The notes below the pieces were generated by a model. That model was not told the DNA's origin, ran no database searches, and worked only from the letters and a program-made list of their open reading frames with translations. Shown here piece after piece: positions 12,844 through 61,880 of a stretch of 64,000 nt of DNA; position 1 is the first letter of the stretch, and every line of letters begins with the position of its first letter. This stretch comes from an uncultured Candidatus Saccharibacteria bacterium (lineage in GTDB: Bacteria; Patescibacteriota; Minisyncoccia; Phycocordibacterales; DATDWN01): positions 8,116 through 72,115 of the forward strand of contig CAYRYA010000004.1 in NCBI GenBank assembly GCA_964428435.1, written 5' to 3'. The position numbers were made by a program, and so were the translations under genes.

Positions 12844-12878
12844 AGTCGAAAGTCCATAAAGTCGAAAGCCCATAAAGC
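12844..12878. repeat. 9-bp-periodic GACTT/AAGTC array upstream of adk
   Basis: agtcgaaagtccataaagtcgaaagcccataaagc; member of a dispersed family (see findings). Confidence 0.55.
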
Positions 12879-13066
12879 TAAATACACAAAATCCCCTATT
12901 TCTAGGGGATTTTGTGTTTTGAGAAACTTTATTTAACCACGGACTTGAGTCGTTCAGATTTGAGGGTAGTTCTAGGCGGAAAGTGAAAAATATTTGTAGA
13001 CGTACTCGTTGTACGATGGAAAATATTTTTTGCTTTCCAACAACGAAATACCCCAAATGTGGACGA

Positions 13067-14338
13067 CTAGTACTCGCGAATAGAGACTTGGGCGTCGATT
13101 TTTTTGATCAGATCGATAACTACAGAAACCGCAATCAAGAGTGCCGTACCCCCCACTGAAATAGCAGTGATACCAGTCACACCTCGAATAATAAGCGGAA
13201 GAACTGCGATCACCCCGAGGAAGAGCGCACCGACAAGAGTCAGTCGTGTGAGTGTTTTTGCAATATGATCAGAGGTAGGGCTACCTGGACGTACACCGGG
13301 AATAAATGCTCCGTTTTTCTGAAGATTTTTTGAGATCTGATCTGGATCAAAGGTTACTGCTGTATAGAAGTATGTGAAGATAAACACAAGGAAGAAATAT
13401 GCGATTGCATACACCCATGAGTTTGAGATAAATGTATTCATTGCAGTTGCTACATTTTTAATTGCAGGATAATCAACATTTGCAAGGAATTGAGATATGA
13501 TTTGCGGGAACAACAATATTGCTGATCCGAAGATAATTGGCATAACACCAGCCTGGTTCATACGTAATGGAAGATAGGTAGATGTACCACCGTACACTTT
13601 CATGCCTCGTACTTGTTTTGCATATGTCACAGGAATTGGTCGTTCTGCCTCAGTGACCACTACAACAAGAACCACTACAACAAGAGCGATAATTGCAAAG
13701 AGTGCGTAGAGTGGAAGTTGCGCTGGATCAAATACGTATATAAGTTGAGAGAGAGCCATTGGAAGCTGAGATACGATACCTGCAAAAATAATCAATGACA
13801 CACCATTTCCAATACCATATTCAGTGATCAATTCACCAATCCACATCAACAACATTGAACCTGCAGTAATAACCGCAAGATTAACCATCAAGTCAAATGA
13901 TAACATTGATGCAATAACATTTTGAGACTCAAGAAGTTTAATCAAACTAAATCCTTGGATAAGTGCAAAAGGTATTGCAAGCATACGTCCATACTGAGCA
14001 AACTTTCGACGACCAGCATCCCCTTCTTCCTGATACATTTCTTTCAGACGTGAAGACATAACTGTGAGCAACTGCATAATAATAGATCCTGTGATATATG
14101 GACCAACACCAAGCATTACAATAGAAAGCTGTGAAAGACCACCTCCAGAGAACAAGTTAAGGAGTCCGAGAAATTCACTATTTGCAAACAAAGAAGCAAG
14201 TGCAGATTCATCTACACCAGGAATAGGGATGATAGCAAGAAAACGAAACACAACAAGTGCCCCAAGTGTAAACAAAATTCGTGTACGAAGTGCCTTGTCT
14301 TGTAATACGAGCCCGAATTTATAGAAAAAGTTTTTCAT
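13067..14338 (-). CDS. secY: preprotein translocase subunit SecY
   Basis: 423 aa, 10 TM helices, conserved SecY N-terminus and plug region. Confidence 0.95.
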   Translation of the reverse strand: MKNFFYKFGLVLQDKALRTRILFTLGALVVFRFLAIIPIPGVDESALASLFANSEFLGLLNLFSGGGLSQLSIVMLGVGPYITGSIIMQLLTVMSSRLKEMYQEEGDAGRRKFAQYGRMLAIPFALIQGFSLIKLLESQNVIASMLSFDLMVNLAVITAGSMLLMWIGELITEYGIGNGVSLIIFAGIVSQLPMALSQLIYVFDPAQLPLYALFAIIALVVVVLVVVVTEAERPIPVTYAKQVRGMKVYGGTSTYLPLRMNQAGVMPIIFGSAILLFPQIISQFLANVDYPAIKNVATAMNTFISNSWVYAIAYFFLVFIFTYFYTAVTFDPDQISKNLQKNGAFIPGVRPGSPTSDHIAKTLTRLTLVGALFLGVIAVLPLIIRGVTGITAISVGGTALLIAVSVVIDLIKKIDAQVSIREY

Positions 14339-14462
14339 GAAATTAATATACGAATATGCGAATATGCGAATTATGCGAATCTACGAATTAATACGAATGA
14401 ATGCTTTTGAATTTGTCTTATTCGTGGCAATTCGTAAGTTTTTCATTCGTATATTCGTATGT
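14339..14462. repeat. TACGAAT/ATTCGTA palindromic intergenic element, copy 2
   Basis: atacgaatatgcgaatatgcgaatt...attcgtggcaattcgtaag...attcgtatattcgtatg between secY and rplO. Confidence 0.7.
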
Positions 14463-14903
14463 CTATACTACCACTTTACCACCAATTGCCTCAATTTTGG
14501 CCTTAGCAGAAAGAGAGAGTGCGCATCCAGACACAGTAACTTTTTTAGTTATCTCACCAGTTGAAAGAATTTTTACCAAAGGTTTTTTACCGTACACTGT
14601 TGTAATTACCCCTTTTGCAACGAGAGTTGCTGGAGTTACTTTATCTCCATTTGAAAATGCATTAGAAATAGAACCAAGTGTAACTGGAACATATGCGTTC
14701 TGGATTGATGTGTTGATATTTACACCTCGTCCTCGAAGTTTAGGAACTCGTTTAATAAAATCTCGAAGTTCTGGTCTCTTTTTGTGACCTGCTCGAGCAT
14801 TCTGTCCTTTTGTTCCACGACCAGCCGTTTTAGCCTTCACCCCTCCTCGGCCGATTTGTCGTGACTTCTTATTTTTATGTGTTCGTTTAAGTGTATGTAA
14901 CAT
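14463..14903 (-). CDS. rplO: 50S ribosomal protein L15
   Basis: 146 aa; MLHTLKRTHKNKKSRQIGRGGVKAKTAGRGTKGQ typical L15 N-terminus. Confidence 0.9.
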   Translation of the reverse strand: MLHTLKRTHKNKKSRQIGRGGVKAKTAGRGTKGQNARAGHKKRPELRDFIKRVPKLRGRGVNINTSIQNAYVPVTLGSISNAFSNGDKVTPATLVAKGVITTVYGKKPLVKILSTGEITKKVTVSGCALSLSAKAKIEAIGGKVVV

Positions 14904-14912
14904 GGTAGTGTA

Positions 14913-15464: not shown

Positions 15465-15475
15465 ACAAATGTATA

Positions 15476-15826: not shown

Positions 15827-15831
15827 AAAAA

Positions 15832-15922
15832 TTTTTAGATTAATGATTTTGGATTTTTGATTAATGAATGGGATTTTTCTTATTCTTTAATCTTTAATCT
15901 TTAATCTTGCTTCCTTAATCTT
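15832..15922. repeat. GATTAATGA...TTAATC 5'-UTR element (family 2), full copy
   Basis: gattaatgattttggatttttgattaatgaatgggatttttcttattctttaatctttaatctttaatctt between rplF and rplR. Confidence 0.7.
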
Positions 15923-15927
15923 GACCT

Positions 15928-16461: not shown

Positions 16462-16467
16462 GTTTTT

Positions 16468-16545
16468 TTGGATTAATGATTTTGGATTCTTGATTAATGA
16501 ATGGGATTTCTCTTATTCTTTAATCTTTAATCCTTAATCTTGTTT
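16468..16545. repeat. family 2 5'-UTR element, full copy
   Basis: ggattaatgattttggattcttgattaatgaatgggatttctcttattctttaatctttaatccttaatcttg between rpsH and rplF. Confidence 0.7.
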
Positions 16546-16551
16546 CTTACT

Positions 16552-17799: not shown

Positions 17800-17808
17800 G
17801 TTATTTTT

Positions 17809-17886
17809 TTGGATTAATGATTTAAGATTTTGGATTAATGAATGGGATTTTTCTTATTCTTTAATCTTTAATCCTGATTCTTTAAT
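17809..17886. repeat. family 2 5'-UTR element, full copy
   Basis: ggattaatgatttaagattttggattaatgaatgggatttttcttattctttaatctttaatcctgattctttaatc between rplX and rplE. Confidence 0.7.
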
Positions 17887-18192: not shown

Positions 18193-18325
18193 TTGTTTTT
18201 ATATGATTTATGCTTTGATACGAATATACGAATTGGAAACTTACGAATAGATTCGAATGAATGCTTTTAATTTCTTATTCGTAACCATTCGCATCATTCG
18301 TACATTCGCATATTCGTATGTTCAT
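18193..18325. repeat. TACGAAT/ATTCGTA palindromic intergenic element, copy 3
   Basis: gatacgaatatacgaattggaaacttacgaatagattcgaatgaatg...attcgtaaccattcgcatcattcgtacattcgcatattcgtatg between rplN and rplX. Confidence 0.7.
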
Positions 18326-20248: not shown

Positions 20249-20333
20249 GTTTGTTAATTGAAAGTTTAAAAATCAAAATTTAAAATATTTTCTCCTACTG
20301 TATTCTTAATTTTTAAATTTTGATTTGTCATTT

Positions 20334-21234: not shown

Positions 21235-21275
21235 GAGTCCATCAAGTCAAAAGTCCTTAAAGTCTGTAAAGTCGG
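21235..21275. repeat. 9-bp-periodic GACTT/AAGTC array immediately upstream of rpsS promoter
   Basis: gagtccatcaagtcaaaagtccttaaagtctgtaaagtcgg; on the minus strand followed by TTGACA-N15-TATAGTATA. Confidence 0.55.
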
Positions 21276-21362: not shown

Positions 21363-21713
21363 CTAGTGATAGTGAGTTACCCCTGGAAAATTCCCAGTAT
21401 TTACCCTTCTCCATTCCGAGAACCCCATCAACCAGCTTCCGTCAGGTTCACAATCCTTATAAACCTGTTCCATCTCACAGAGCTTACAGTACCTGAAATG
21501 TTGGAGGATGGGAGCACCACCGTATTCATTCCGATGTTTTTCAGTACAATACCTGAGACTGAACCTCTTGCAGTCGAGACAGAAGTACCTGCTAGACCCA
21601 AAAATAACACCAATCACAGAATAAGTTATGTACCCCCCTAAGCTCATTGATACAAGGAACCCAAACAGTACATACACTAAAAGCGCTAACTTAACTACAA
21701 AACCTTTCAACAT
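21363..21713 (-). CDS. small membrane-anchored Cys-rich protein, hypothetical (inserted between rplB and rpsS)
   Basis: 116 aa; two N-terminal hydrophobic helices then CLDC...C...CKLC...C; own TTGACA-like promoter after the rplB terminator and its own downstream hairpin. Confidence 0.45.
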   Translation of the reverse strand: MLKGFVVKLALLVYVLFGFLVSMSLGGYITYSVIGVIFGSSRYFCLDCKRFSLRYCTEKHRNEYGGAPILQHFRYCKLCEMEQVYKDCEPDGSWLMGFSEWRRVNTGNFPGVTHYH

Positions 21714-21756
21714 GTCACTCTCCTGGTGATTAAGCTACCACACAAAGTATTATTGT

Positions 21757-21797
21757 CAAAAAACACCCCTATCTTTTTATAAGGGGTGCTTTTTGTT
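21757..21797 (-). terminator. terminator immediately after rplB
   Basis: GCACCCCTTATAAAAAGATAGGGGTGTTTTTTG on minus strand, 1 nt after rplB stop. Confidence 0.6.
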
Positions 21798-22640
21798 TTA
21801 CTTTCTCTTTCCAACTTTTCGTCGAGAGACGATGTGTTTATTAGAATATTTCTTAGGAGTTCGAGTCTTCTGTCCCTTACCTGTCGGTCGTCCGTATACA
21901 GACACTGCTCGACGTCGTCCTCGGCCTTGTCGGCCTTCTCCACCTCCGTATGGGTGGTCAACTGGGTTCTGAGCAGTACCTCGCACTGTAGGGCGGATAC
22001 CGAGCCAGCGTGAGCGTCCTGCTTTACCGAGGTTTACGAGTCGGTTTTCATCGTTTGCTACTTCACCAACTGTTGCAAATGCAGTATCTTTCACCTTTCG
22101 CACTTCAGATGAAGGCATTTTGAGGTCAACGTATCCTGCGTCTTTCGCAATGAGCTCAATGTAACTTCCACCAGATCGAGCAAGCTTTGCTCCTCCTTGT
22201 GGTTTCACCTCTACGTTGTAGATAAATGTACCAATAGTAATATTTTTGAGTGGGAGTCGATTTCCTGTTTTTACTTCTGCATTTTCTGCAGTGATATATG
22301 TATCACCTACTTTAGCTCCTTTAGGAAGAAGGATGTATCGCTTCTCACCATCTTTGTATACTGCAAGACCGATAAATCCCGATCGGTTTGGATCGTATTC
22401 AACAGTTTTAACTGTGTAAGGAATATTGATTTTGTTGTATACGAAATCAATTTCTCGGAAAAGTCGTTTATGTCCTGCCCCTTTATGTCGAGTAGTAATC
22501 ACACCCTGGTTATTTCGTCCAACTGATCGTTTAAAACCTCGTGTGAGTGACTTTACAGGCTTTGCGGTAGTCAAAACTGCACCGTAGTTGATCGATGTCA
22601 TGTTTCGACGTGATGGGGTTGTTGGTTGGTATCTCTTCAT
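21798..22640 (-). CDS. rplB: 50S ribosomal protein L2
   Basis: 280 aa; L2 conserved core and GGGEGR motif. Confidence 0.95.
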   Translation of the reverse strand: MKRYQPTTPSRRNMTSINYGAVLTTAKPVKSLTRGFKRSVGRNNQGVITTRHKGAGHKRLFREIDFVYNKINIPYTVKTVEYDPNRSGFIGLAVYKDGEKRYILLPKGAKVGDTYITAENAEVKTGNRLPLKNITIGTFIYNVEVKPQGGAKLARSGGSYIELIAKDAGYVDLKMPSSEVRKVKDTAFATVGEVANDENRLVNLGKAGRSRWLGIRPTVRGTAQNPVDHPYGGGEGRQGRGRRRAVSVYGRPTGKGQKTRTPKKYSNKHIVSRRKVGKRK

Positions 22641-22736
22641 AAATGTAAAATTGAAATCTCAAAAATAAAAATGTTGTATGCTTAATTTTTTAACTCTGCT
22701 TTGTCATTTTTCATTTTCATTTTTGATTTTTGATTT

Positions 22737-23027: not shown

Positions 23028-23690
23028 TTATGCAAGTTTAGAGCTAACTGTTGCGAGAGACTCTGCTGGATTCTCGATCACAATGTATTTATATTTCATC
23101 AAATCAACAGGGTTGATATTTCGGATTTCATCTACTTCAACATTACTGAAGTTACCAAAACTCTTCTTTGTAGTTACACTGTCTTTTGAAAGCGCAATCC
23201 ATGCCGAATTTTTCTTTTTAGAAAGAATGTCTGTAAAACCACCAATTTTTGAGAATGATGCAAGTGTTCCTTTTGCATCTTTTGCTTTTGGAGCAGAGAA
23301 ATTCAAAGAGTCTACAAAAAGGATTTGTCCTTTCTTAAATTTAGCTGAAAGGATAGTATACAAAGCTTTTGCCTTCATTTTCTTGTTTACCTTTCGAGTA
23401 TAGTCTTTTTCGTTTCGAGGACCATGAGTTACACCTCCACCTACCCAGATAGGAGATCGAGTAGAACCGTGTCGAGCGCGACCTGTTCCCTTTTGTTTCC
23501 AAGGTTTCTTTCCACCTCCAGATACTTCCCCTCGGTTTTTAGTGTGAGCTACTGGTGTTCGAGCACTTGATTCCATAGATACAACAACCTGGTGAACCAA
23601 GTCAGCATTCCACTTAAGACCAAACACGCTCTCTGGGAGAGTTATTGTTCCTGCTGTTTTACCTGTTTGTGTGTAAATATTTGCTTCCAT
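23028..23690 (-). CDS. rplD: 50S ribosomal protein L4
   Basis: Start set at MEANIYTQTGK; the longer ORF N-terminus (MPNATDFTDLKDW...) is a translation of the GACTT repeat array. Confidence 0.85.
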   Translation of the reverse strand: MEANIYTQTGKTAGTITLPESVFGLKWNADLVHQVVVSMESSARTPVAHTKNRGEVSGGGKKPWKQKGTGRARHGSTRSPIWVGGGVTHGPRNEKDYTRKVNKKMKAKALYTILSAKFKKGQILFVDSLNFSAPKAKDAKGTLASFSKIGGFTDILSKKKNSAWIALSKDSVTTKKSFGNFSNVEVDEIRNINPVDLMKYKYIVIENPAESLATVSSKLA

Positions 23691-23702: not shown

Positions 23703-23797
23703 AGTCATAAAGTCTATCCAGTCCTTCAAGTCCGTAAAGTCGGTTGCGTTTGGCATCTGACTTGATGGACTTTCAACTTTATGAACTTTTGACTTCT
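23703..23797. repeat. inverted pair of 9-bp-periodic GACTT/AAGTC arrays between rplC and rplD
   Basis: cataaagtctatccagtccttcaagtccgtaaagtcgg ... ctgacttgatggactttcaactttatgaacttttgacttc; the two halves are mutual reverse complements. Confidence 0.6.
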
Positions 23798-24465
23798 ACT
23801 AGTGTCCCTCGGCGTCCTGCGACAGCACCTCGAATAAAGATTTCTCCTGCTTCCGCATCGATACCTGCAATAGTAAGACCGCCTGTAGTGATGCGATCAC
23901 CACCTGTTCGTCCTGCCATTCGCTTTCCTTTTGCTACACGTCCTCCGTCTCTTCCTCCACCTCCAAGAGATCCTGGTTCTCGCTCTGAGTGTTTCTGTCC
24001 GTGTGATCGAGGTCCTCCGTGGAAACCATGTCGCTTAACACCCCCCTGGAAACCTTTTCCTTTTGAGATAGAAGATACAGTAACTCCGTCTCCTGCAGCA
24101 AATGTAGAGATATCGATAATATCACCTACTTTGTATTCACCCCCTTCAATTCGGAATTCTTTGATATGAGCAAATGAACCGAGTTCTTTTACATGACCTT
24201 TTACAGCCTTTGAGATATTTTTTGGATTTCGAGAACCAAAACCTACCTGCACAGCAGTATAACCATCCTTTGAGAGGTTCTTAACTTGAGTGATTACATT
24301 AGGACTTGTTTTGATAACAGTCACTGGATGCACAATACCCTGCTCATCGAAGATCTGGGTCATATTCTGTTTTGTTCCAAGGATGAATTTCATATGATTG
24401 TATTGATTTTGAAGACATTTTTCGGACAGTAATGAGAAAAGTTTTTTCTCAACATTGCCCATCAC
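23779..24465 (-). CDS. rplC: 50S ribosomal protein L3
   Basis: 228 aa; L3 conserved core. Confidence 0.9.
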   Translation of the reverse strand: MMGNVEKKLFSLLSEKCLQNQYNHMKFILGTKQNMTQIFDEQGIVHPVTVIKTSPNVITQVKNLSKDGYTAVQVGFGSRNPKNISKAVKGHVKELGSFAHIKEFRIEGGEYKVGDIIDISTFAAGDGVTVSSISKGKGFQGGVKRHGFHGGPRSHGQKHSEREPGSLGGGGRDGGRVAKGKRMAGRTGGDRITTGGLTIAGIDAEAGEIFIRGAVAGRRGTLVEVKSS

Positions 24466-24914: not shown

Positions 24915-24960
24915 ATCGCCTCCTACCACCTATATAAGCACATATTTCTTTATTTGAAAA

Positions 24961-24993
24961 CAAAAACCACCCTTTCGGGCGGTTTTTGTTTAC
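24961..24993 (-). terminator. terminator immediately after rpsJ
   Basis: AAACAAAAACCGCCCGAAAGGGTGGTTTTTGTTTT on minus strand. Confidence 0.6.
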
Positions 24994-25015
24994 TTTTGAC
25001 TTTACGGACTTTTGA

Positions 25016-25381
25016 CTAAATTATCTTTACATCGATATTAACACCAGATGGAAGAGAGAGATTTGTGAGTGATTCCATAATCTTTGGAGTCGGGTTCAAA
25101 ATATCAATCAATCGCTTATGAGTTCTCATTTCAAACTGCTCTCGAGCGTTTTTATACACAAACGAAGCTCGGTTTACTGTGTATTTCTTGATCTCAGTTG
25201 GAAGCGGGATTGGACCCAAAACCTTTGCATCGTATCGAAGAGCAGTATCCATGATCTGTCGTACTGAGATATCGAGTACTTTGTACTCATATGCTCGTAC
25301 TCGGATTCGCAATTTAGAAATCGCGTCCTCTTTTGCAGCTTTTTTAGGAGCTTTTTTTGTTGTTGTTTCTTTCGTTGCCAT
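25016..25381 (-). CDS. rpsJ: 30S ribosomal protein S10
   Basis: S10 core (KLRIRVRAYEYKVLD...) with short K/A-rich N-terminal extension; start at MATKETTTKK. Confidence 0.9.
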   Translation of the reverse strand: MATKETTTKKAPKKAAKEDAISKLRIRVRAYEYKVLDISVRQIMDTALRYDAKVLGPIPLPTEIKKYTVNRASFVYKNAREQFEMRTHKRLIDILNPTPKIMESLTNLSLPSGVNIDVKII

Positions 25382-27573: not shown

Positions 27574-30500
27574 TTATTTTTTCAATTTAAAGAACATTTT
27601 GTTTTTTTCCACTGCTTTTCGAGCAAAATCAAATGCTTGTTCAAAATCACTCTTTACACCAAACATACCAGTACCAAGTGAACGGTCATACTGCAAACCG
27701 ACACCCTCATCAATGACACTACCTGTACCAATCTTCTGCCCATTGAGTAATATTGTAAGCTCTGAGCCTTTCTGAAACACATTGATTCGTCCTCCGTTAT
27801 ACTCGATTGGGTACCGTAAGTCAATCATATCTGCAGGTAAATCCATAAGTCTTTTTTCGAGTTCAATATTGTATGCAGTACGAATATTTTTGAATTTTGG
27901 ATCAAATTGATACTCAGGTTTAAGTGGTAATTTTCCTGAAATAATATCTGAAGGTCGTATTTGTTCAGTATTCACTGAGACAATATCTTTAAAATTAACA
28001 GAACGAGCTGGGATATTCTCTATCGATGAAGACGCTACGATAGTTGCTGCATCAGCAGCTATAGATTCTCCTGGTGTAGCTGATACTTTCAATTCTGGTG
28101 TACTTTCAAGAACTGAAGGGTGTGTAGCAGGTGCAACCTGAGGAGGTTGTGTTTTAACAACATGATCTTCGACAGGAGTCGGATCAGTTGAAGTTGACAG
28201 ACCGTCCGCGTCAAACATTTTTCCTGTATAAGGATGTATTGCGCCATCACTTTCCATAAGTATCTCCGTTGCACCACTTCCATCACGCACCAAGGAAAGA
28301 TTTCCTTCTGCATCGATAGCAAGTTTTTCTCCTTTGAACCCGAATGCACTTTCTGCAGCTTGTCCTGGTTTAAAGAGACCTAAATCGAGAGCAATCTTTT
28401 GTGGAGACTGAGCAAATAGTTTTTCAAATGCAGGTGTAAGCGACTGACCTTGAGTCGCTTTTTTAAGTTGATCTATTGTGTCAATAAAACCTTTACTTGA
28501 AAGCCCTACTTCAACTGGTTGCATTGTTACAGGAATACTCTGCTCCACAACAGAGGCGGTAGGTTTTTCAATAATGGCTGTCTTTTGTGTAGGAGCATCT
28601 TCCTTAATGAGTTTATTCCACCATGAAGATTTTGTTGGAGCAGGAACATCAACAACAGAATGTGCTGTTGTAAGTGCATCATGTGCAGCATTTATTCCTG
28701 CGCCAGTACCCACGGACGTAGCTCCTCCCACTGCCATCATAAGCGCAGCTTTTTTTATACGATCACGTTTTGCCTGAACTTCTGCTTCTGACTCATATGC
28801 CTCAAAATCTCCAATTTTTTCATCCTGTTGCCCACCGTCAATTGTCGCGAAATTTTTCAAAGCTTTTTCTTTTTCAGCGAGCATCTTTTCTTGTTGTTGT
28901 TTACCTACCACAGACCCAGCATACTTTGCTCCCATTGCACCAGCGAAACCTCGCGCTGCTCGCATTGATGCAGTTGCAGCAAAACCTCCTACACCACCCG
29001 AAACGAGAGAAAAGAATGCTGATGATAGTGCAACACGAGCAAGGACAGGTAACTGTGCCCATTTATCCATAGACCTTGCCATAATACCTCTTTCTTTTTC
29101 AGGAAGAGCTTCTGCAATAAGCGTATTGAGCGTGTCTCGCTCCTTCTTAAACTGTTCCATTACTCCAATATCAAGATGTTTCGTTGTTTTTTTCTCAATA
29201 ATAGAAAAATCATGCGGCCGAGAAATTGTTTCCTCTACCTCAACATGACGTCGTGCAATAAAATTTCTCAATGCACGACCAGCCTCCATGTATTCTTTTT
29301 TAGCATCGAGATAGGCCTGATCTATATCTCCTTCAGCATCAGGACGCTGTTTAGACGGAACACCAAGTTCAGTCATAATCTTCTCATACACTTTCTTGCT
29401 TGAACGAATCTTTTCTTTACGAAGCGCTTCTTGTGCTGCAAAATGCTTAAGTGACTCCTCCAATTTAGACGAGAGTTCTTTTTCTATTTTTTCTGATTGA
29501 TCTTGCGTCATTGGTCCTGCTGGCTCAGGATATGCTGCTCCAATGAACTGATGCACAGCATTTGGAGAAATCTCAATTCGCTGAGCCTTGAGTGCGGCGT
29601 CACTGACACGCTCATCAAGACTTCTTTCAGATAAAGGTTTTTCAGTATATACCGGCGGTGGAGGTGCTACACCTCGTTCAGCAACATCTTTTACTGTAAT
29701 CACAGGGTGAGATACCACCTGAGTAGGTCTTATGGTGGTGACAGGGGGTATGATTTTCTTTGGACTCTGCAGAGGGATACTTGATCCCACAACCGGTGGT
29801 GGCTCTGGCGTCAACCAATCAGGGTAAGTTGTTTCTGTATCTTTCCCTTGCGCAATCTGTACCAAACTTTCATATTCACTTGGTAATAGTACAGCTTTAA
29901 CATCAGCTAAATTTTTAATGATATCTTCAATTTTTTCACCATCTACTTTGAATCTAAAAAATGTTTTTAGTGCTGTTTTTATGTTCTTATTTTCAATATC
30001 ATATTTTTTTATCAATCCGTTGAACGTATCCACTATTTTCTTATACGTAGGATTTTGAGGTTTTTCAACCATATCAGGACGCATCATAAATGCATTATGT
30101 ACTTTTGCCTCAGTAGTGTTGTATCCAGACGCATCATCAGTCATACCAGGACGCATCATAAATGCGTTGCGTACCTTTGCTTCAGTATTATATCGCGAAG
30201 CATCATCAGCCATCTTTTCTGGTTGAGGTGTTGACGTATCGAAACCTGATTGACCCAAAAAACCTTCGCCTGAAGGATCTATCCCCTCAATATTTCCTTG
30301 GTTTAATATATCCTCAACCCACACCGCACCATCTACAAGAGTACTCTTTACTTTATCTACCTGTGAAAGTTCTTGTGAACGATCAGATCCCCCCGCAAAG
30401 CCAAAGGTTGGTCTAAATGTTCCATCAACACCACCCTTCAAAAGATTTCTATCTAAGAGACTCTCTAATGCCCTACTAATACGTAGACGAAGATTTGATC

Positions 30501-30909
30501 CTCTTCCAGATCGAGGATCACCTTCACCTTTGTTTCGTAGAATTGCGTTAACAATCTGATCCGGTGTGAGCGGAGTTTCTTTTGTAACACTTATAACATC
30601 TTTCTCTATATCAGAAATTGGAAATTGTCCTGCAGTAATTTCTACTGGCTTTAACTCATTTTTTTGTAGAGGTGGTATGGAAACACGTATTGGTACTATT
30701 TTTTTAGAAACAGTAGATATTCTGTTTTTCAAAATTTTTCCAGATTCTTTTGCCGCCTGCTGAATACCTTCTTCAATCTCTTGTTCTTCTAACACACCGA
30801 AAGGATTTTTAACCCCTGTGTCTTCAAGCATTTCTGCTAACTCCTTAAGATATTTTTCGCGGTCTGGATTAAGTGGTTCTTTTTCGTATATTTTCTGAGA
30901 ATCTTCCAT
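27574..30909 (-). CDS. large (~1112 aa) hypothetical protein with two Gly/Ala-rich hydrophobic segments, inserted between fusA and tuf
   Basis: Continuous ORF. Start set at MEDSQKIYEKE (TACAAT 6 nt upstream, leaderless-like). The annotated TTG start at 30978 lies inside the fusA terminator hairpin. Tandem 22-aa repeat, Pro-rich linker, GxxxG-rich hydrophobic segments; no catalytic motif recognised. Confidence 0.7.
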   Translation of the reverse strand: MEDSQKIYEKEPLNPDREKYLKELAEMLEDTGVKNPFGVLEEQEIEEGIQQAAKESGKILKNRISTVSKKIVPIRVSIPPLQKNELKPVEITAGQFPISDIEKDVISVTKETPLTPDQIVNAILRNKGEGDPRSGRGSNLRLRISRALESLLDRNLLKGGVDGTFRPTFGFAGGSDRSQELSQVDKVKSTLVDGAVWVEDILNQGNIEGIDPSGEGFLGQSGFDTSTPQPEKMADDASRYNTEAKVRNAFMMRPGMTDDASGYNTTEAKVHNAFMMRPDMVEKPQNPTYKKIVDTFNGLIKKYDIENKNIKTALKTFFRFKVDGEKIEDIIKNLADVKAVLLPSEYESLVQIAQGKDTETTYPDWLTPEPPPVVGSSIPLQSPKKIIPPVTTIRPTQVVSHPVITVKDVAERGVAPPPPVYTEKPLSERSLDERVSDAALKAQRIEISPNAVHQFIGAAYPEPAGPMTQDQSEKIEKELSSKLEESLKHFAAQEALRKEKIRSSKKVYEKIMTELGVPSKQRPDAEGDIDQAYLDAKKEYMEAGRALRNFIARRHVEVEETISRPHDFSIIEKKTTKHLDIGVMEQFKKERDTLNTLIAEALPEKERGIMARSMDKWAQLPVLARVALSSAFFSLVSGGVGGFAATASMRAARGFAGAMGAKYAGSVVGKQQQEKMLAEKEKALKNFATIDGGQQDEKIGDFEAYESEAEVQAKRDRIKKAALMMAVGGATSVGTGAGINAAHDALTTAHSVVDVPAPTKSSWWNKLIKEDAPTQKTAIIEKPTASVVEQSIPVTMQPVEVGLSSKGFIDTIDQLKKATQGQSLTPAFEKLFAQSPQKIALDLGLFKPGQAAESAFGFKGEKLAIDAEGNLSLVRDGSGATEILMESDGAIHPYTGKMFDADGLSTSTDPTPVEDHVVKTQPPQVAPATHPSVLESTPELKVSATPGESIAADAATIVASSSIENIPARSVNFKDIVSVNTEQIRPSDIISGKLPLKPEYQFDPKFKNIRTAYNIELEKRLMDLPADMIDLRYPIEYNGGRINVFQKGSELTILLNGQKIGTGSVIDEGVGLQYDRSLGTGMFGVKSDFEQAFDFARKAVEKNKMFFKLKK

Positions 30910-30969
30910 GTGTACATTGTATCTCGGTAGTGACCACAGACGCAATGAAAAAAAATTTCGTATGTGTAT

Positions 30970-31006
30970 AAAAAACAAAACTGGTATTTCACCAGTTTTG
31001 TTTTTT
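30970..31006. terminator. fusA terminator (perfect palindrome)
   Basis: AAAACAAAACTGGT-ATTTC-ACCAGTTTTGTTTT. Confidence 0.65.
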
Positions 31007-33376: not shown

Positions 33377-33425
33377 AAAATAATGATTAAAGATTAATGA
33401 TAAAAGATTAAAGAATAATACAGAA
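33377..33425. repeat. family 2 5'-UTR element, partial, upstream of fusA
   Basis: aatgattaaagattaatgataaaagattaaagaataat; on minus strand TCATTAATC..TTAATCATTATTTT-ATG. Confidence 0.5.
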
Positions 33426-34540: not shown

Positions 34541-34617
34541 TGGATTGATGATTATAGATTAAGGATTAATGAAAGGGATTTCTCTGATTCTTTAATCTTT
34601 AATCCTGTATCTTTAAT
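34541..34617. repeat. family 2 5'-UTR element, full copy
   Basis: ggattgatgattatagattaaggattaatgaaagggatttctctgattctttaatctttaatcctgtatctttaatc between rpsL and rpsG. Confidence 0.7.
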
Positions 34618-35043
34618 CTATTTCTTAGTTGCACCACCTTTACCTTTCTTTGCACCATATCGACTTCGAGATTTACCTCGTTTGTCTACACCTGTCGCAT
34701 CGAGTACACCTCGAACGATCTGATATCGGAGTCCTACGTCTTTTACCTTTCCACCTCGGAGCATTACCACTGAGTGTTCCTGGAGTGTATGACCCATACC
34801 TGGGATGTATGCAGTAACTTCCATACCGTTTGAAAGTCGAACTCGGGCAATTTTTCGAATCGCTGAGTTAGGTTTCTTTGGAGTCTTTGTAGTTACTTTT
34901 GTACACACCCCTCGTTTAAATGGTGATGAATAAAAAATAGGGCGGTTCTTAAGTACGTTAAAACCACGAGTAAGCGCAACTGATCGCACTTTTCGCTTTA
35001 CGCTTGAACGGCTTTTCTTTACTAATTGATTTATCGTTGACAT
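34618..35043 (-). CDS. rpsL: 30S ribosomal protein S12
   Basis: 141 aa; [12 protein letters not shown]...PKKPNSA(I)RK typical S12. Confidence 0.95.
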
Positions 35044-43535: not shown

Positions 43536-43898
43536 ATGAATGACTGTATATTTTGCAAAATTATAAACGGAGAGATTCCTTCGTATAAAGTATACGAGGA
43601 TGACAATTTTTTCGCCTTTTTGGATATTCACCCTCAGTCCCCGGGGCATGTACAGGTGATACCAAAAAAGCATCATCGGTGGGTGTGGCAGGTACCAAAT
43701 GTCGGCGAATACTTTGAAGTTGTGCGGAAAATCGCCCTCGCTCAACAAAGAGCATTTGACACCGAATGGATACTTTCAAAAATTGTTGGTGACGAAGTAG
43801 AACATGCCCACATCTGGGTATTTCCAAACAAAGAAGTTTCTGGGAATCCAAAGGATTTTGAAGGAAATTTAAAAAAAGTTAAAGAAAATATACTTTAG
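43536..43898 (+). CDS. HIT family (histidine triad) hydrolase
   Basis: [43 protein letters not shown] and histidine triad [10 protein letters not shown]; start at MNDCIFCKI. Confidence 0.8.
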
Positions 43899-43940
43899 TC
43901 TATAAAGTCCTTAAAGTCGAAAGTCCATCAAGTCAAATAC
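43899..43940. repeat. 9-bp-periodic AAGTC array
   Basis: ctataaagtccttaaagtcgaaagtccatcaagtcaaatac. Confidence 0.55.
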
Positions 43941-43944
43941 AAAT

Positions 43945-44292
43945 TTATTCAAGGGATTTAATGAGACCTGACAATATTCTTAATATCTCCACTGATTCTT
44001 TATAGAGAGGTTCGAAGTTATTTTTAGAGATATATTTTAATTCAAAAGCAAGATCAAGCATTGACCTCACCTCACCCACTGAACCTTTAGTTATAAACAG
44101 AAACTTCTTAAACTCCTTATCTCCTCTTCTCTCGTATCCTTCTGCAATATTATTCATTACTGAAACAGATGCTCTTTGAATTTGATCTTTAAATCCATAA
44201 TCCTTTAGAAGTCTGAAGCTTGTGTAGACGCCTATACTCAGAGCTTTTGCCTTCTGCCATCCTATAATATCTTCGAACTTTTCAATCTTCAT
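43945..44292 (-). CDS. four-helix-bundle protein (23S rRNA intervening-sequence protein family)
   Basis: 115 aa; ...NNIAEGYERRGDKEFKKFLFITKGSVGEVRSMLDLA... matches the four-helix-bundle family. Confidence 0.65.
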   Translation of the reverse strand: MKIEKFEDIIGWQKAKALSIGVYTSFRLLKDYGFKDQIQRASVSVMNNIAEGYERRGDKEFKKFLFITKGSVGEVRSMLDLAFELKYISKNNFEPLYKESVEILRILSGLIKSLE

Positions 44293-44301
44293 ATTTTTGA
44301 A

Positions 44302-44346
44302 TTGACTTGATGGACTTTACAGACTTGATGGACTTTTGACTTTGAC
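44302..44346. repeat. 9-bp-periodic GACTT array (inverted relative to 43899-43940)
   Basis: ttgacttgatggactttacagacttgatggacttttgactttgac; read-through gives pgk an artificial C-terminal tail. Confidence 0.55.
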
Positions 44347-51623: not shown

Positions 51624-53375
51624 TTATTCTGAAATTACACGAAGCACCTCTTCAATTGTGGTTGTACCTTGCACCGCTTGGAAAATACCGTCTTCGATCA
51701 TAGTGAGCATACCTTCTTTTTCTGCCTGCTTTTGTATCTCATCTGCAGTACCCCCTTTCATAATAATCTCTTTAATCGCTGGTGACACTTTTAGGATCTC
51801 GTGAATACCTGCTCGCCCACCATATCCATCAGCATCAGCAGTACCTTTTTTAGGTCTAAAGAAAGGTATTTTTTCCCAATTATCACTCTTACCGATTATT
51901 TTTTCAGCACGAAGAGCTTCGGCAATCTTATCAAGATTTACCGATTTGCCGAGAGTTTCAATCTCTGATTTTGTCAGGAAATATTTTTCTTTTGATTCTT
52001 CAGTGAGACGACGCACCAAACGCTGCGCAATAATAATATTAATTGTTGATACCAATAGGAATGGTTCTACTTTCATATCAATCAATCGAGGAATCGCTCC
52101 GGCCGCACTGTTGGTGTGCAGTGTTGAAAGCACAACGTGTCCCGTAAGTGATGCGTTGATAGCGAGAGATGCTGTTTCATTGTCTCGAATCTCCCCCACC
52201 ATAATAATGTCAGGATCCTGTCGAACAAGCGTACGAAGTCCCGATGAGAATGTAAAACCTATCTCTGGGCGTACCTGTGTTTGATTAATACGTTTCATCT
52301 GATACTCAACAGGATCTTCGATCGTTGAAATATTCACATCAGGAGTATTGAGCATATCGAGGATCGTATACAATGTTGTTGTTTTACCTGAACCTGTCGG
52401 ACCTGTAGTGAGGATCATCCCTGTTGTTGATTTGATTGCTTTATGAATACGTTCAAGACCTTCTCCATGGAAGTGAAGTTTTTCAAGTGTAAAACCTGAT
52501 ACAGTTTCTCGGAGCAAACGCATTACCGTCTTTTCTCCGTAGTATGTTGGAAGTGTTGATACACGAAACGATACTTTTTCACCGTTCATGTCAATCTTGA
52601 AACGACCGTCTTGTGGAAGACGTTTTTCATCAAGCTTGAGACTTGCAAGCACTTTTATACGAGCACTAATCGATGGGGCAACATTTTTAGGCAACACCAT
52701 CGCATCGTGAAGCAGACCATCAATACGGTATCGTACCAATAGTTCTGTTTCCATTGGTTCAATGTGAATATCGGATGCGTCTTGTAAGATGGCATGTTTT
52801 AAAAGCGTATCAACAATACGCACCACCGGTACATCATCTGCCAATTTTTTCAGATCACTTTCTGAAACATCTTCTTCCAGATCTTCAACTTTCTTCAAAG
52901 AAAGAGCGTCTTTTTGAATAAGATCACCAAATTCAGCCTTCAAACTTTTTTGATACTGCAACAACGCTGACTTCATAGATTCCCCATCAGTAAGACGTGG
53001 AAGAATTTTGAGACCCACCTTCTTTTTAACGAAATCAATCGCTGTCAAATCTTCAGTATCAAGCATCGCTACTTCAAGTGCAGTATCTGTTTTTTTGAAT
53101 GCGACAATATTATGGTTACGTGCAATAGGTTCTGGGATCATTGAAAGAACTTCAAAGTCCAGTTTTTCACCTTTTAAATCTACGAAAGGAATGCCGAGAA
53201 TATACGCCTGCATCCGACGAAGGTCATCTTCGGTTAGTTTTCCTTTACTTACCAATATCTTCCCTAATCCTTCACCTGACTCTTCGCCTTCTTTGGCGGC
53301 AGCAGTAACCTCAGCACGAGATACAAGACCTGAGTCAATAATGAAATCTTTAAGTTGTGTTTCTTCAATGTGCAT
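51624..53375 (-). CDS. pilB: type IV pilus assembly ATPase PilB (GspE family)
   Basis: 583 aa; N-terminal GSPII_E_N region, Walker A GPTGSGKTTTLY, Asp and His boxes. Confidence 0.9.
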   Translation of the reverse strand: MHIEETQLKDFIIDSGLVSRAEVTAAAKEGEESGEGLGKILVSKGKLTEDDLRRMQAYILGIPFVDLKGEKLDFEVLSMIPEPIARNHNIVAFKKTDTALEVAMLDTEDLTAIDFVKKKVGLKILPRLTDGESMKSALLQYQKSLKAEFGDLIQKDALSLKKVEDLEEDVSESDLKKLADDVPVVRIVDTLLKHAILQDASDIHIEPMETELLVRYRIDGLLHDAMVLPKNVAPSISARIKVLASLKLDEKRLPQDGRFKIDMNGEKVSFRVSTLPTYYGEKTVMRLLRETVSGFTLEKLHFHGEGLERIHKAIKSTTGMILTTGPTGSGKTTTLYTILDMLNTPDVNISTIEDPVEYQMKRINQTQVRPEIGFTFSSGLRTLVRQDPDIIMVGEIRDNETASLAINASLTGHVVLSTLHTNSAAGAIPRLIDMKVEPFLLVSTINIIIAQRLVRRLTEESKEKYFLTKSEIETLGKSVNLDKIAEALRAEKIIGKSDNWEKIPFFRPKKGTADADGYGGRAGIHEILKVSPAIKEIIMKGGTADEIQKQAEKEGMLTMIEDGIFQAVQGTTTIEEVLRVISE

Positions 53376-53377
53376 AC

Positions 53378-53425
53378 GAAAGTAAAAAGTCTTAAAGTCG
53401 AAAGTCTACCGAGTCGACTTTGCAC
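53378..53425. repeat. 9-bp-periodic GACTT/AAGTC array immediately upstream of pilB start
   Basis: gaaagtaaaaagtcttaaagtcgaaagtctaccgagtcgactttgcac. Confidence 0.55.
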
Positions 53426-55222: not shown

Positions 55223-55286
55223 TGCATATGCTGCTTTTTTCCTGTATTATTCTTTAATCCTTAATCATTAATCTAATATCTATCCC

Positions 55287-59268: not shown

Positions 59269-59410
59269 CGAACCTCCTTCTTTAACAAGACTAGCATATT
59301 TTTTTTCTTTTGTTATAGTTAACATATTAACAATCAAATTGTATTCATTTAATCACGAACTTTCACAATTTCTCCAAGGTTGCGTATAAAACTTAAAAAG
59401 GCTCGGAGGC

Positions 59411-59464
59411 GTACTTACCAGTACGATGAGAACCTTTTTCAAATTTTAGACGATGAGATTGGTG
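59411..59464 (+). repeat. conserved ~55-70-nt motif, copy 2, in clpP 5'-UTR
   Basis: gtacttaccagtacgatgagaacctttttcaaattttagacgatgagattggtg; about 85% identical to 25837-25890, similarity extends ~15 nt further upstream. Confidence 0.5.
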
Positions 59465-59492
59465 AAATTTGGAAGTTCCAAACAACAAAACC

Positions 59493-60068
59493 ATGTCCTA
59501 TCTAGTACCAACTGTGATTGAGAAGACCAATATGGGTGAGCGAGCATATGATATTTACTCTCGCCTTCTAAAAGACAATATCATCTTCTTAGGTGGACCA
59601 ATTGATGACACTGTCGCAAACCTCGTGATTGCCCAACTTCTCTTCCTCCAATCTGAGGATCCTAAGAAGGATATTTCTATTTACATCAACTCTCCAGGAG
59701 GGTCAGCTTCTGCAACTCTCGCTATGATTGACACGATGAATCATATTAAAAACGATGTTTCTACTGTATGTATCGGTATGGCAGCATCAGGTGGTGCATG
59801 GATGCTCTCTGCAGGAACAAAAGGTAAGCGTTTCGCTCTCCCAAACGCTGAGATTATGATCCACCAACCACTCGGAGGTGCAGAAGGGCAAGCAACTGAT
59901 ATTGAGATCAGAGCAAAACAAATCCTCAAACTCCGCGAAAACCTCACAAAAATCATGGCTAAAAACACTGGTCAGACTGTAGCGAAGGTAGCTCAAGACA
60001 TTGATCGTGACTTCTGGATGAATTCAGAAGAAGCCAAGAAATATGGAATTATAGACAAAGTACTCTAA
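59493..60068 (+). CDS. clpP: ATP-dependent Clp protease proteolytic subunit
   Basis: Catalytic Ser in GMAASGG, His in MIHQP, Asp downstream; start at [12 protein letters not shown]. Confidence 0.9.
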
Positions 60069-60107
60069 AAGTAAGAAAAAACTGCACACTGTGCAGTTTT
60101 TTCTTAC
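60066..60107 (+). terminator. terminator after clpP
   Basis: GTAAGAAAAAACTGCACA/CTGTGCAGTTTTTTCTTAC. Confidence 0.6.
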
Positions 60108-60276
60108 CAATTCGACAAAGTTAACTAATTAATGTATCGTGTAGATATTACCCATTTAAATTGTGTAACCGACTGCTTTCCAACTCCCGCCTTGACCGAA
60201 TATCTGCACTCCCCTTGTACTGACACCATAAAAACTTTTTAGGCTTCCGTGTAAGGCAGTAGGTTACTGTACGTAT

Positions 60277-61806
60277 ATGTCATTAAAAATAGTAGCAGCC
60301 CTTTTGGCTGGAGCATCCGTCATCGGACTTGCTTTAGGTTACTACCTACGACTGATCATTTCCCTCGGAAAACGTGGCTCTATGGAGCTTGAGCTCAAAC
60401 AAATGGAGCTTGCTGCAAAGGACCGTGAGAAAGAAATCATTGAAGGAGCAGAACAGAAAGCAGAGAAGATCCTTGAAGAGGCTCGAAGTGAAATAAAAGA
60501 AAAGGAAGAAAAAGCAAAAAAAACAGAAGAACGTCTCATCAAAAAAGAAGAGATGCTTGATAAACGTCAGATCGATATTGATTCTGAGGTTGATATGATT
60601 AAGGAAAAAATCGCTGAAATCAAAGAGATCCGCGAAAAGGCGGACAAACTTAAAGAAGAACGCCAAGCAGAACTTGAGCGAGTCGGACGCCTCTCTCCAG
60701 AAGAAGCAAAGAAAGAGATACTCACCAATACCGAACGTACATACGAAGCAGATATTTTGGCGCGTATGCAAAAACTTGAACGAAACGGTGAGGAACAGCT
60801 TTTGAAAAAAGCACAAGATATTCTTGCAACATCGATTCAACGTCTTGCAAACTCAGTGACTGCAGACATGCTCACTACCAACGTACCTATCCCCTCTGAT
60901 GAAATCAAGGGTAAGATTATTGGTAAAGAAGGGCGAAATATTAAAGCATTTGAGCGAATGAGTGGTGTTGAAATTATCGTAGACGACACACCAGGCTCTA
61001 TCACCATCTCATCATTCGACCCAGTCCGCCGACAAGTGGCAAAAGTAGCTCTCGAAAAACTCATCGCTGATGGACGTATTCAGCCTGCAAAAATCGAAGA
61101 AATGATCCAAAAAGCTCAGGAAGATATCAACAAAATGATAAAGGAGAAAGGAGAAGAAGCAGTCTATGAATGTGGAATCTTAAACCTTGACCCAAAAGTA
61201 GTTGCTATCCTTGGACGTCTTCACTACCGTACAAGTTACGGACAAAATGTCCTCGCCCACTCAGTTGAAATGGCTCATATTGCGGGAATGCTTGCAGAAG
61301 AACTTGGTGCAAATGTCCAAGTAGCAAAAGCTGGTGCACTCCTCCACGACCTCGGAAAAGCCCTCGACCATGAAGTTGCTGGTACGCATGTTGAAATCGG
61401 TCGTCGTATCTTGCAAAAATTTAACGTCGATGAAGCGGTAATCAAAGCAATGCAGGCACATCACGAAGAATACCCATATGAAACGATAGAATCCATCATT
61501 GTGCAGTGTGCCGATGCTATCTCAGGAAGTCGCCCTGGTGCTCGCCGTGACTCAGTAGAAAACTACTTGAAACGACTTGCAGACCTCGAAGGTGTGGCAA
61601 CATCATTTAAAGGTGTTGAGAAAGCATATGCCTTGCAGGCTGGCCGTGAAATCAGAATTTTTGTGACTCCACAAGAAGTAACTGATCTCGAAGCAAAAAA
61701 AATGGCACGAGATATCGCAACTCGAATCGAAGGTGAGTTGAAATATCCGGGAGAAATTAAGGTGAATGTGATTCGTGAAAGTAGAACGATCGAATACGCG
61801 AGATAG
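60277..61806 (+). CDS. rny: ribonuclease Y
   Basis: N-terminal TM, coiled coil, KH domain (GKIIGKEGRNIKAFE) and HD domain (HSVEMAHIAG...LLHDLGKA). Confidence 0.9.
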   Translation: MSLKIVAALLAGASVIGLALGYYLRLIISLGKRGSMELELKQMELAAKDREKEIIEGAEQKAEKILEEARSEIKEKEEKAKKTEERLIKKEEMLDKRQIDIDSEVDMIKEKIAEIKEIREKADKLKEERQAELERVGRLSPEEAKKEILTNTERTYEADILARMQKLERNGEEQLLKKAQDILATSIQRLANSVTADMLTTNVPIPSDEIKGKIIGKEGRNIKAFERMSGVEIIVDDTPGSITISSFDPVRRQVAKVALEKLIADGRIQPAKIEEMIQKAQEDINKMIKEKGEEAVYECGILNLDPKVVAILGRLHYRTSYGQNVLAHSVEMAHIAGMLAEELGANVQVAKAGALLHDLGKALDHEVAGTHVEIGRRILQKFNVDEAVIKAMQAHHEEYPYETIESIIVQCADAISGSRPGARRDSVENYLKRLADLEGVATSFKGVEKAYALQAGREIRIFVTPQEVTDLEAKKMARDIATRIEGELKYPGEIKVNVIRESRTIEYAR

Positions 61807-61880
61807 TCGAAAGTAAATACGAATACTAATTGGATTTTGACTTGATGGACTTGTGACTTTACGGACTTTCGACTTACTCG
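61805..61880. repeat. 9-bp-periodic GACTT array between rny and hup
   Basis: agtcgaaagtaaatacgaatactaattggattttgacttgatggacttgtgactttacggactttcgacttactcg. Confidence 0.55.

Follow-up and report, generated by a model that had tools for sequence, protein, structure and literature searches.

Dispersed GACTT repeat arrays in a Candidatus Saccharibacteria genome resemble the terminal arms of intervening-sequence-type cassettes that encode PF05635 proteins

In REP/REPIN (repetitive extragenic palindrome) systems, a RAYT gene is flanked by short repeats that are also dispersed as hairpin doublets and singlets, and the partnership is long-lived and vertically inherited. The Correia or nemis elements of Neisseria are co-transcribed inverted-repeat elements of about 90-130 nt, whose hairpins are RNase III substrates and which vary between strains. 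In cyanobacteria, arrays of heptamers known as STRR (short tandemly repeated repetitive) sequences were reportedly described by Mazel in 1990, and STRR are said to have been found inside the RNase P RNA gene by Vioque in 1997. To our knowledge, the origin and purpose of rRNA intervening sequences (IVSs) have been open questions since about 1990, and we know of no role for the very large PF05635 family outside diversity-generating retroelements (DGRs). In the Coxiella IVS, tandem GACAGAT heptamers abut the ATG of the S23p gene and their number varies between strains, while RNase III cleaves within its 28-bp terminal stem (PMC4990558). A homologue of S23p, the DGR accessory protein Avd, is a positively charged pentameric barrel that binds an RNA stem-loop (bioRxiv 10.1101/2023.10.23.563531). 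In this study, we analysed a stretch of 64,000 nt, here called the window, from contig CAYRYA010000004.1 of an uncultured Candidatus Saccharibacteria bacterium, in which tandem arrays with a GACTT core are dispersed between genes. These arrays are, with high confidence, the arms of cassettes of the PF05635/IVS type. Their architecture is identical to that of the S23p-encoding 23S intervening sequence and extends well beyond the window.

A search for chained GACTT motifs (at most one mismatch, spacing 7-9, at least three units) detected nine arrays in the 64 kb against 0.05 expected from 100 second-order Markov shuffles, and all nine were intergenic or touched gene ends only (p = 7e-9 for nine intergenic midpoints by chance, at a coding fraction of 0.875). 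The original prediction, which was made from the letters alone, was therefore correct in regarding nine arrays between genes as real, and the inverted pairs that it described, including the one that brackets a gene for a four-helix bundle, are real as well. An even distribution over coding and non-coding DNA, as compositional bias would produce, is not the case. The pentamer alone was no more frequent than expected (66 and 63 copies, with about 69 expected) and, therefore, the signal lies in the arraying and not in the base composition. A relaxed scan of the window gave no convincing additional arrays, and the weak site that had been proposed at 53340-53400 proved to be pilB coding sequence up to 53375, with no separate array present. 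The strict 9-bp period that had been claimed does not hold, as the spacings are 9, 7 and occasionally 8 (e.g. 9-7-9-7), and the 9/7 alternation often produces a 16-bp super-unit, GACTTkAyGGACTTTy. Over 216 arrays among the matches listed in a wider sample, spacings of 9, 7 and 8 occurred 643, 409 and 72 times, respectively; a spacing of 7 was almost always followed by 9, and two consecutive 7s were rare. Each array in the window has 4-5 units, rather than the 3-7 first given, and a length of 28-40 bp. The window contains one full cassette (43896-44342), two gene-less doublets (rplC/rplD and rny/hup) and four single arms:

43896-43934, minus strand: cassette arm of 5 units, GACTT outward; its terminal TAGTC is the TAG stop of the convergent HIT gene
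43945-44292, minus strand: PF05635/TIGR02436 cassette gene of 115 aa, the cargo; co-directional with upstream pgk
44304-44342, plus strand: second cassette arm, 5 units; encodes the new Pgk C-terminus and stop codon
23702-23741, minus strand: arm of the rplC/rplD doublet, 11 nt from the rplD ATG (23690)
23742-23758: loop of the rplC/rplD doublet
23759-23795, plus strand: partner arm of the rplC/rplD doublet; gives the last codons of rplC and its TAA stop
61804-61822, minus strand: decayed rny/hup arm (TAGTCGAAAGTAAATAC) directly 3' of rny; its TAG is the rny stop
61839-61875, plus strand: intact rny/hup arm, 5 units; reaches the upstream edge of the conserved hup promoter
12843-12879, minus strand: single arm at adk, 5 units of which two are degenerate; adk ATG 10 nt away
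21235-21273, minus strand: single arm at rpsS; the -35 box of rpsS follows 8 nt downstream
24991-25018, plus strand: single arm at the 3' end of rpsJ, 4 units, antisense to the operon; its terminal GACTA is the rpsJ TAG stop
53380-53415, minus strand: single arm that is the pilB 5' untranslated region (UTR), 4 nt before the ATG

In the case of HIT, rpsJ and rny, the TAG stop codon is part of the terminal TAGTC unit of an arm.

The protein that is encoded between the two cassette arms belongs to PF05635, '23S rRNA intervening-sequence protein' (Pfam E=1.8e-31), and also matches TIGR02436, 'four helix bundle protein' (107 bits). It is 52-67% identical to cassette proteins from other phyla, and its solved relatives, 2GSC and 2RLD, have five chains each as deposited in the PDB. 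As in the 23S IVSs of Leptospira, Coxiella and Azospirillum (L212; the sequences that were compared carry L numbers), a PF05635 open reading frame (ORF) lies inside terminal inverted, tandem-repeat arms that abut the ATG, the repeat copy number varies and the element forms part of the host transcript. The arms of the 23S IVSs form a stem, which RNase III cuts in Coxiella (PMC4990558). Of the features that define an IVS, the window cassette has the S23p ORF and a predicted enclosing inverted-repeat stem, imperfect and interrupted as it is, but not the rRNA location: the window elements lie between protein-coding genes and none is in rRNA, the window having no rRNA gene. Unlike in the 23S IVSs, moreover, the unit is RACTT with 9/7 spacing instead of a heptamer, and gene-less doublets and single arms far outnumber the gene-carrying copies. 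The doublets at rplC/rplD and rny/hup and the single arms at adk, rpsS, rpsJ and pilB are derivatives of the cassette. Avd belongs to the same fold family, but the window gene is solitary and repeat-flanked, with no reverse transcriptase or template/variable repeat nearby; PADLOC gave no defence-system match for its protein. The IVS-type cassette architecture was already known in 23S rRNA; no description of dispersed arrays tied to PF05635/S23p proteins was found in the literature searched.

The link between the arrays and the protein was approached from both sides. A repeat-first scan with GACTT-N4-GACTT-N2-GACTT-N4-GACTT in one genome per species revealed at least 118 loci against about one expected by chance. 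The hosts among the matches listed were mostly Bacteroidota and Patescibacteria, plus a few others, and the pattern was almost absent from viral contigs, only one of which carries it. The core and the 9/7 spacing were conserved at these loci, while the spacer letters differed by lineage. Among the matches listed, neighbouring arrays were ordered AAGTC...GACTT in 52 cases and the reverse in 6, the gaps between them fell into two classes, of 1-60 bp and of about 340-390 bp, and a PF05635 ORF was present in every gap of the long class. The gene was present at only about 12 of the 118 repeat-selected loci among these matches and, therefore, most arrays are gene-less doublets or single arms. In the protein-first search, for which the best 80 of 577 metagenomic relatives were retained, GACTT arms flanked 27 of the 80 loci, and an AACTT-core variant with the same layout was found in all 47 remaining loci that had enough flanking sequence. 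Inverted 7-mers were common to both flanks in 60 of 72 loci, compared with 19 in the direct-orientation control, and the dominant repeat lags around the genes were 7, 9 and 16. The first unit of the downstream arm doubles, in many copies, as the end of the gene, whose last codons and stop it supplies (..IKTL*, AAAACTTTATAA).

It could be argued that such arrays are functionless microsatellite-like DNA that arose by replication slippage at AT-rich intergenic sites. The number of units does vary, both among the near-identical contigs L155, L156, L161 and L195 and across Bacteroidota, where it ranges from 3 to 29. However, different phyla share the core, the spacing rule and the outward polarity, the arrays go with a single protein family, only 0.05 arrays were expected by chance in the window, and 44 of 52 arrays in Patescibacteria are kept at 4-5 units, with five as the mode. 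We regard slippage as extremely improbable.

Divergent PF05635 genes carry inverted tandem units of their own:

L085: (CGTGAAA)/(TTTCACG), on the same contig as a GACTT-type cassette
L071: (AGTAAGAAT)/(TTCTTA)
Nostoc and Geminocystis: (GGGAAAA)/(TTTTCCC)
Calothrix: (GGGTGTA)/(TACACCC)
Riemerella: (AAGGTTY)/(RAACCTT)
Anabaena: (AGGTGAC)/(GTCACCT)
Picosynechococcus: (GGAGATAA)/(TTATCTCC)

Both inverted arms were found in seven of ten plasmid-borne PF05635 genes; the plasmid-borne gene of Nostoc PCC 7120 (L209) has the downstream arm only and an ISL3 transposase upstream. In Azospirillum lipoferum (L212), we identified a true 23S rRNA IVS that is inserted in helix 45, between E. coli positions 1163 and 1186, and whose arms are inverted heptamers of the GACAGAG/GGACGGA type. 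Three cyanobacterial plasmids (L213, L214 and L215) carry PF05635 cassettes co-directionally within CRISPR-cas operons, where they lie between cas10/cmr2 and cmr3, between cas6 and cas4, or before cas4. The resemblance to the STRR of cyanobacteria is twofold: several short tandem-repeat families are present between genes and inside a structural RNA gene, and heptamer arrays flank those cyanobacterial PF05635 genes that we examined. Neither the units nor the taxa are the same, however, and a link between STRR and PF05635 was not found in the literature searched.

The position of the cassettes relative to their host genes is highly regular. The upstream neighbour was co-directional with the cassette gene in 57 of 57 distinct cassettes and the downstream neighbour in 52 of 59, which, together with the copies in cas operons, places the cassette within host transcription units with no room for a promoter of its own. 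On the sense strand, the upstream arm was more purine-rich than the downstream arm in 68/70 and 10/10 cases. Gene-less doublets also reside in or beside genes for stable RNAs. L005 (Magasanikiibacteriota) has one inside its 16S rRNA gene (3130-3217; Rfam SSU 1377 bits) and further ones in the spacers of its rRNA operon, 6 nt from a tRNA; in L035 and L043, doublets lie 6-7 nt past the tmRNA genes, and in L080 a tRNA-Leu gene has one on either side, the loops of the two being nearly identical. It is worth mentioning that the 16S gene of L005 (1864-3705) is 1842 nt long against a 1533-nt model, that its GACTT doublet lies near E. coli position ~1140 and that a second insertion of about 110 nt is found near model position 80. 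The window itself has a tmRNA gene (3148-3558, plus strand; Rfam 64.7 bits) that is not followed by a GACTT doublet. Only this tmRNA reached the gathering score in an Rfam search of the window, with no match over the arrays at E<=1.

We propose that a cassette consisting, in sense-strand order, of a purine-rich AAGTY arm (4-5 units at 9/7 nt), a PF05635 gene for about 115 aa and an inverse pyrimidine-rich RACTT arm would insert co-directionally into a host transcription unit, in the window between pgk and HIT. In the host transcript, the arms would pair into a long imperfect stem that folds the insertion back and brings the flanks together, which would make the insertion structurally neutral. 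Hence it could be tolerated within the helices of rRNA, next to genes for tRNA or tmRNA, and precisely between the stop codon of one gene and the start codon of the following one, and the stem would be a plausible RNase III substrate, as in the known IVSs. The best explanation that we can offer, taken as a whole, is a family of small cassettes whose terminal arms are the arrays and which have an RNA fold-back role, and we consider it reasonably probable; for fold-back as the mode of action, taken alone, we regard the balance as even. The rplC/rplD doublet has a predicted fold of -30.2 kcal/mol (z=-4.05), the predicted terminal stem of the cassette (arms 43896-43934 and 44304-44342) encloses the whole ORF (z=-3.25), and 39 doublets have a predicted median of 27 inter-arm pairs and -34 kcal/mol. 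These predicted folds would fit the co-orientation, the residence in rRNA and other stable RNAs and the precedent of the IVSs.

The window comes from a Parcubacteria-type bacterium of the candidate phyla radiation (CPR). Comparison with relatives showed that the elements come and go. The rplC/rplD junction is empty in L199 and L200 (L4 94% identical), which have a 4-nt spacer, GTAGAA-ATTAAAGGATAATACA-ATG, and also in L202; in the window, it holds a doublet of about 94 nt, and the native stop codon and AAGGA motif are lost. At pgk/HIT, no cassette is present in L203, L204 and L205; the native Pgk ends in ..ALTK*, and the junction in relatives contains other small ORFs or a terminator instead. 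Artefactual ORF extensions had been attributed to the arrays, which proved right for the rplD N-terminal extension and for ORF 23744..24169 (L4 homologues start at 23690), but not for the pgk C-terminus, which is genuine, the native last codons and stop having been replaced by array sequence; the rplC end is genuine in the same manner. The rpsS arm has an orthologous array in L201 but none in L199 or L200; L204 and L205 carry the pilB leader arm at the same site, and the decayed rny/hup arm is also present in L218 and L221. The rny/hup spacer (61780-61940; L218-L222) exists in four states. It holds a doublet of the GACTT or of the ACGAAT type, a terminator flanked by arms of the TAGACAGTC type, or a terminator with a single arm, and is a local hotspot of array turnover.

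Bidirectional terminator hairpins directly abut the inner end of single arms in the window, at 12884-12917 on the other side of the adk arm, with a possible decayed partner of that arm at 12925-12946 (plus strand), and at 24960-24990 beside the rpsJ-end arm. In L219 (3040-3090) and L220, the terminator is the loop between two arms. The terminator may be an alternative cargo of the doublet. Single arms are best read as decayed halves, some of which may have been taken over as leaders; their descent from the stop-proximal cassette arm is hinted at by a shared inner flank, GTATTT, which is perhaps just a degenerate unit. No transposase was found near the elements, and cassettes with genes of 75-87% identity have the same, albeit diverged, flanks. 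L154 has two PF05635 cassette genes (2998 and 4764) about 1.7 kb apart on one contig with 80.6% DNA identity, which are diverged paralogues and not recent copies. Judged from these comparisons, turnover does take place, without any sign that a burst occurred recently.

Several observations weigh against the explanation that we favour. Partner arms resemble each other no more than non-partner arms do (0.554 vs 0.534, p=0.15), and folding was no better for true than for chimeric arm pairs (p=0.96); therefore, there is no sign of selection for arm complementarity. In the median doublet, the longest helix without interruption spans only 12 bp, a short length for an RNase III site of the classical kind. 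No stem can be formed by a single arm, and in the wider sample the single arms show no orientation bias relative to host genes (17 vs 19 among the matches listed); therefore, an RNA-sense function cannot explain them. As for mobility, we infer it only from copy number and from which relatives have or lack the elements: where empty and occupied sites were compared, the whole spacer was replaced and no target-site duplication was seen, and no near-identical cassette genes were found in different contexts, as identical genes always share their flanks. Moreover, the L132 protein is 65% identical to the window protein and yet has a very different, 14-nt repeat unit, and two of the ten plasmid examples, Pseudanabaena and Gemmatirosa, have direct instead of inverted arrays.

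Some of these observations suit a DNA-level system resembling REPIN/RAYT, in which a PF05635 oligomer or a recruited host enzyme copies or maintains doublets and arms and RNA folding is incidental. The gene carries its own repeats on both sides, and among the matches listed 207 arrays stand against 12 gene loci (~15:1). Paralogous doublets share the same loop (L080), units are subfamily-specific even on one contig (L085), no arm-to-arm coevolution is seen, single arms are neutral in orientation to transcription, and inheritance with the flanking genes is vertical (L008, L178 and L183), as is the case for RAYTs. The two systems have in common dispersed intergenic hairpin doublets of a gene-flanking repeat and an apparently long-lived, vertical history. 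Unlike in REPIN/RAYT, the gene encodes a 115-aa four-helix bundle and not a Y1 transposase, and the arms are tandem arrays of a 5-nt core rather than a single imperfect palindrome. Moreover, PF05635 has no known catalytic motif and its sole characterised relative binds RNA, the variable 7/9 spacing is easier to reconcile with a flexible single strand than with phased sites on double-stranded DNA, the co-orientation in 57/57 cassettes and the doublets in rRNA point to constraints at the RNA level, and no transposase, target duplication or recent copies were seen. On balance, we consider such a DNA system unlikely, and retain the fold-back cassette as the better explanation. With Correia/nemis elements and hairpins resembling miniature inverted-repeat transposable elements (MITEs), the window elements share a length of about 90-130 nt, their intercistronic position, the hairpin-forming inverted repeats and their presence in some genomes and absence from others; unlike Correia/nemis elements, they show neither a TA target duplication nor terminal inverted repeats of defined sequence, their arms are oligomer arrays and a cognate protein-coding version exists.

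The anatomy of the arrays also raises the question of what reads them. The unit and the outward polarity are conserved while the units are subfamily-specific, which argues for a trans-acting reader, for which the flanked protein is the obvious candidate. As the repeat unit is subfamily-specific, it is probably the recognition element of a pentameric, Avd-like protein. That the cassette protein itself recognises the array is nonetheless a tentative proposal. An analogue is the trp RNA-binding attenuation protein (TRAP), a ring-shaped oligomer that reads spaced (G/U)AG repeats. A ring oligomer could similarly read a core with variable 2-4-nt spacers, and the arrays mostly have five units in a pentameric family; unlike in the TRAP analogy, the number of units per array is not fixed (3-29 in Bacteroidota), for which reason the match of five units to a pentamer is only suggestive. 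A more general version, which we regard as rather unlikely, is that all PF05635 proteins would be sequence-specific readers of their own flanking arrays, including the 23S IVS proteins, the solitary four-helix-bundle proteins of Bacteroidota, CPR bacteria and cyanobacteria and, by descent, Avd. It would be equally speculative to suppose that the pentamer binds its cognate array as RNA or single-stranded DNA in a long-lived partnership of the REPIN/RAYT kind. With the same reserve, doublets might have been seeded into operon junctions, rRNA genes and cas operons, and the STRR and the ACGAAT/TTAATCT families could be further instances. The arrayed protein-binding sites of the original prediction may thus hold in a general sense, given that the core and spacing are conserved across phyla and the units are subfamily-specific, but its iteron/DnaA-box and -35 versions found no support.

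Regulation of adjacent promoters, by transcription factors or nucleoid proteins that bind the arrays or by the arrays acting as -35- or UP-like elements, would account for the array that ends 8 nt upstream of the rpsS -35 box and for the one at the edge of the hup promoter. The units also contain TTGACT, and the 16-bp unit yields matches resembling TTGACT-N17-TAxxxx (24996 and 25012). Clustered -35-like elements were nevertheless not borne out, as sigma-70-like sites were not enriched in the promoter scan of the window (26 vs 30.2 expected), and the claim that the arrays abut promoters holds for rpsS and hup only, the other seven of nine having no recognisable promoter just downstream. The rpsS promoter (TTGACA-17-TAGTAT) is conserved in the window, L199, L200 and L201, and the hup promoter is constant in hup-containing relatives; both are thus kept in relatives that lack the array or have a different repeat. 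The orientation relative to the gene, which had been thought to be constant, was unbiased for single arrays in the wider sample (17 vs 19). Arrays also lie in a 5' UTR, in a 16S rRNA gene, after stops and between cistrons or convergent genes, and the invariable flanking of PF05635 genes would be left unexplained. A promoter role is, in our opinion, very improbable.

An alternative that concerns the single arms is that they were co-opted as U-rich, unstructured leaders free of a Shine-Dalgarno motif, which aid translation initiation or leaderless transcription. A co-directional ATG lies 0-15 nt past the 3' end of the array in 37/216 cases against 10/216 on the other side (matches listed), the adk, rplD and pilB starts are 10, 11 and 4 nt from an arm and have no Shine-Dalgarno motif, and the pilB leader array is conserved in three genomes. 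However, this proximity follows from insertion into very short spacers, the orientation is unbiased in the wider sample and the empty junctions of relatives likewise have no clear Shine-Dalgarno motifs. The arms beside stop codons or inside rRNA are not explained either, and as a general account this appears quite improbable.

Other classes of elements were considered and rejected. Iterons or DnaA boxes are expected to be clustered at one origin, whereas the window has seven dispersed loci with mixed 7/9 spacing, and the arrays flank a PF05635 gene and are also found in rRNA genes and at operon junctions. A CRISPR array would have repeats of 24-48 bp with unique spacers instead of a 5-nt core with 2-4-nt spacers. 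Elements derived from MITEs or insertion sequences (ISs) were dismissed, as there is no target-site duplication and no transposase nearby, and DNA-uptake sequences on account of the anatomy and the tie to PF05635. The flanked gene is not a RAYT gene, since it is PF05635 only and not a Y1 transposase of the IS200/IS605 type.

If the arrays are the cognate element of the protein, PF05635 gains a concrete and testable target, and 23S IVSs, solitary four-helix-bundle genes in operons and cas loci, and dispersed arrays would be united under one architecture. The arrays also account for some of the insertions in CPR rRNA genes. Moreover, a streamlined CPR genome tolerates fold-back inserts of about 100 nt between ribosomal-protein cistrons, which bears on translational coupling. 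In practical terms, the arrays corrupt gene calls by false N-terminal extensions and spurious ORFs, while the C-termini of L3 and Pgk are truly altered.

Tandem- and inverted-repeat scans revealed that the window holds at least four further doublet families, which fill the stop-to-start junctions of the S10-spc operon:

14339-14462 (rplO/secY) and 18193-18325 (rplN/rplX): family B, RCGAAT/ATTCGY in 8-9-nt units, with a shared loop GAATGCTTTT..
15827-15927 (rplF/rplR), 16462-16551 (rpsH/rplF) and 17800-17886 (rplX/rplE): family C, GATTAAR/TTAATCT heptamers, copies about 85-90% identical
8159-8261, 11338-11371, 33381-33418, 34589-34619 and 55246-55273: family C, single arms
22641-22736 (rplW/rplB): family D, TGAAAAA/TTTTTCA; spacers of relatives 4-10 nt
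20249-20333 (rplV/rpsC): family E, AAATTTT; spacers of relatives 4-10 nt

Family B fills its junctions from the stop codon to the ATG, where L199 and L200 have only 4-5-nt spacers and L201 has the same boundaries. Over the junctions of families B-E, the spacers in L199 and L200 are 4-36 nt, and three of these junctions are occupied by B and C doublets in L201 as well, with identical boundaries. Doublets that are absent from the 94%-identical relative are thereby shared by one of 87% identity. All eight occupied junctions are predicted to fold into one hairpin that starts 0-12 nt past the stop and ends 0-21 nt before the AUG, and in four of the eight the first predicted pair lies inside the stop codon itself. 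This suggests that doublets may be tolerated since the stem would keep the stop and start codons close. No PF05635 gene with arms of families B-E was found among the sequences examined. Several of the single arms of family C abut start codons or come after terminators.

Between rplB and rpsS lies a Cys-rich ORF of 116 aa (21363-21713, minus strand) with a hydrophobic N-terminus, no Pfam or NCBIfam match and flanking terminators of its own (feature region 21714-21800). The same slot is occupied by unrelated small ORFs in L199, L200, L201 and L202; because of this variable slot and the conserved promoter that rpsS has of its own, the S10 operon is split here. In the str operon, an ORF of 1134 aa (27574-30978, minus strand) lies between fusA and tuf, and the proteins at the same position in L199 and L201 (1229 and 1276 aa) have no Pfam match. 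It is followed by a 95-aa ORF, whose counterpart in L199 has a weak DUF5663 match.

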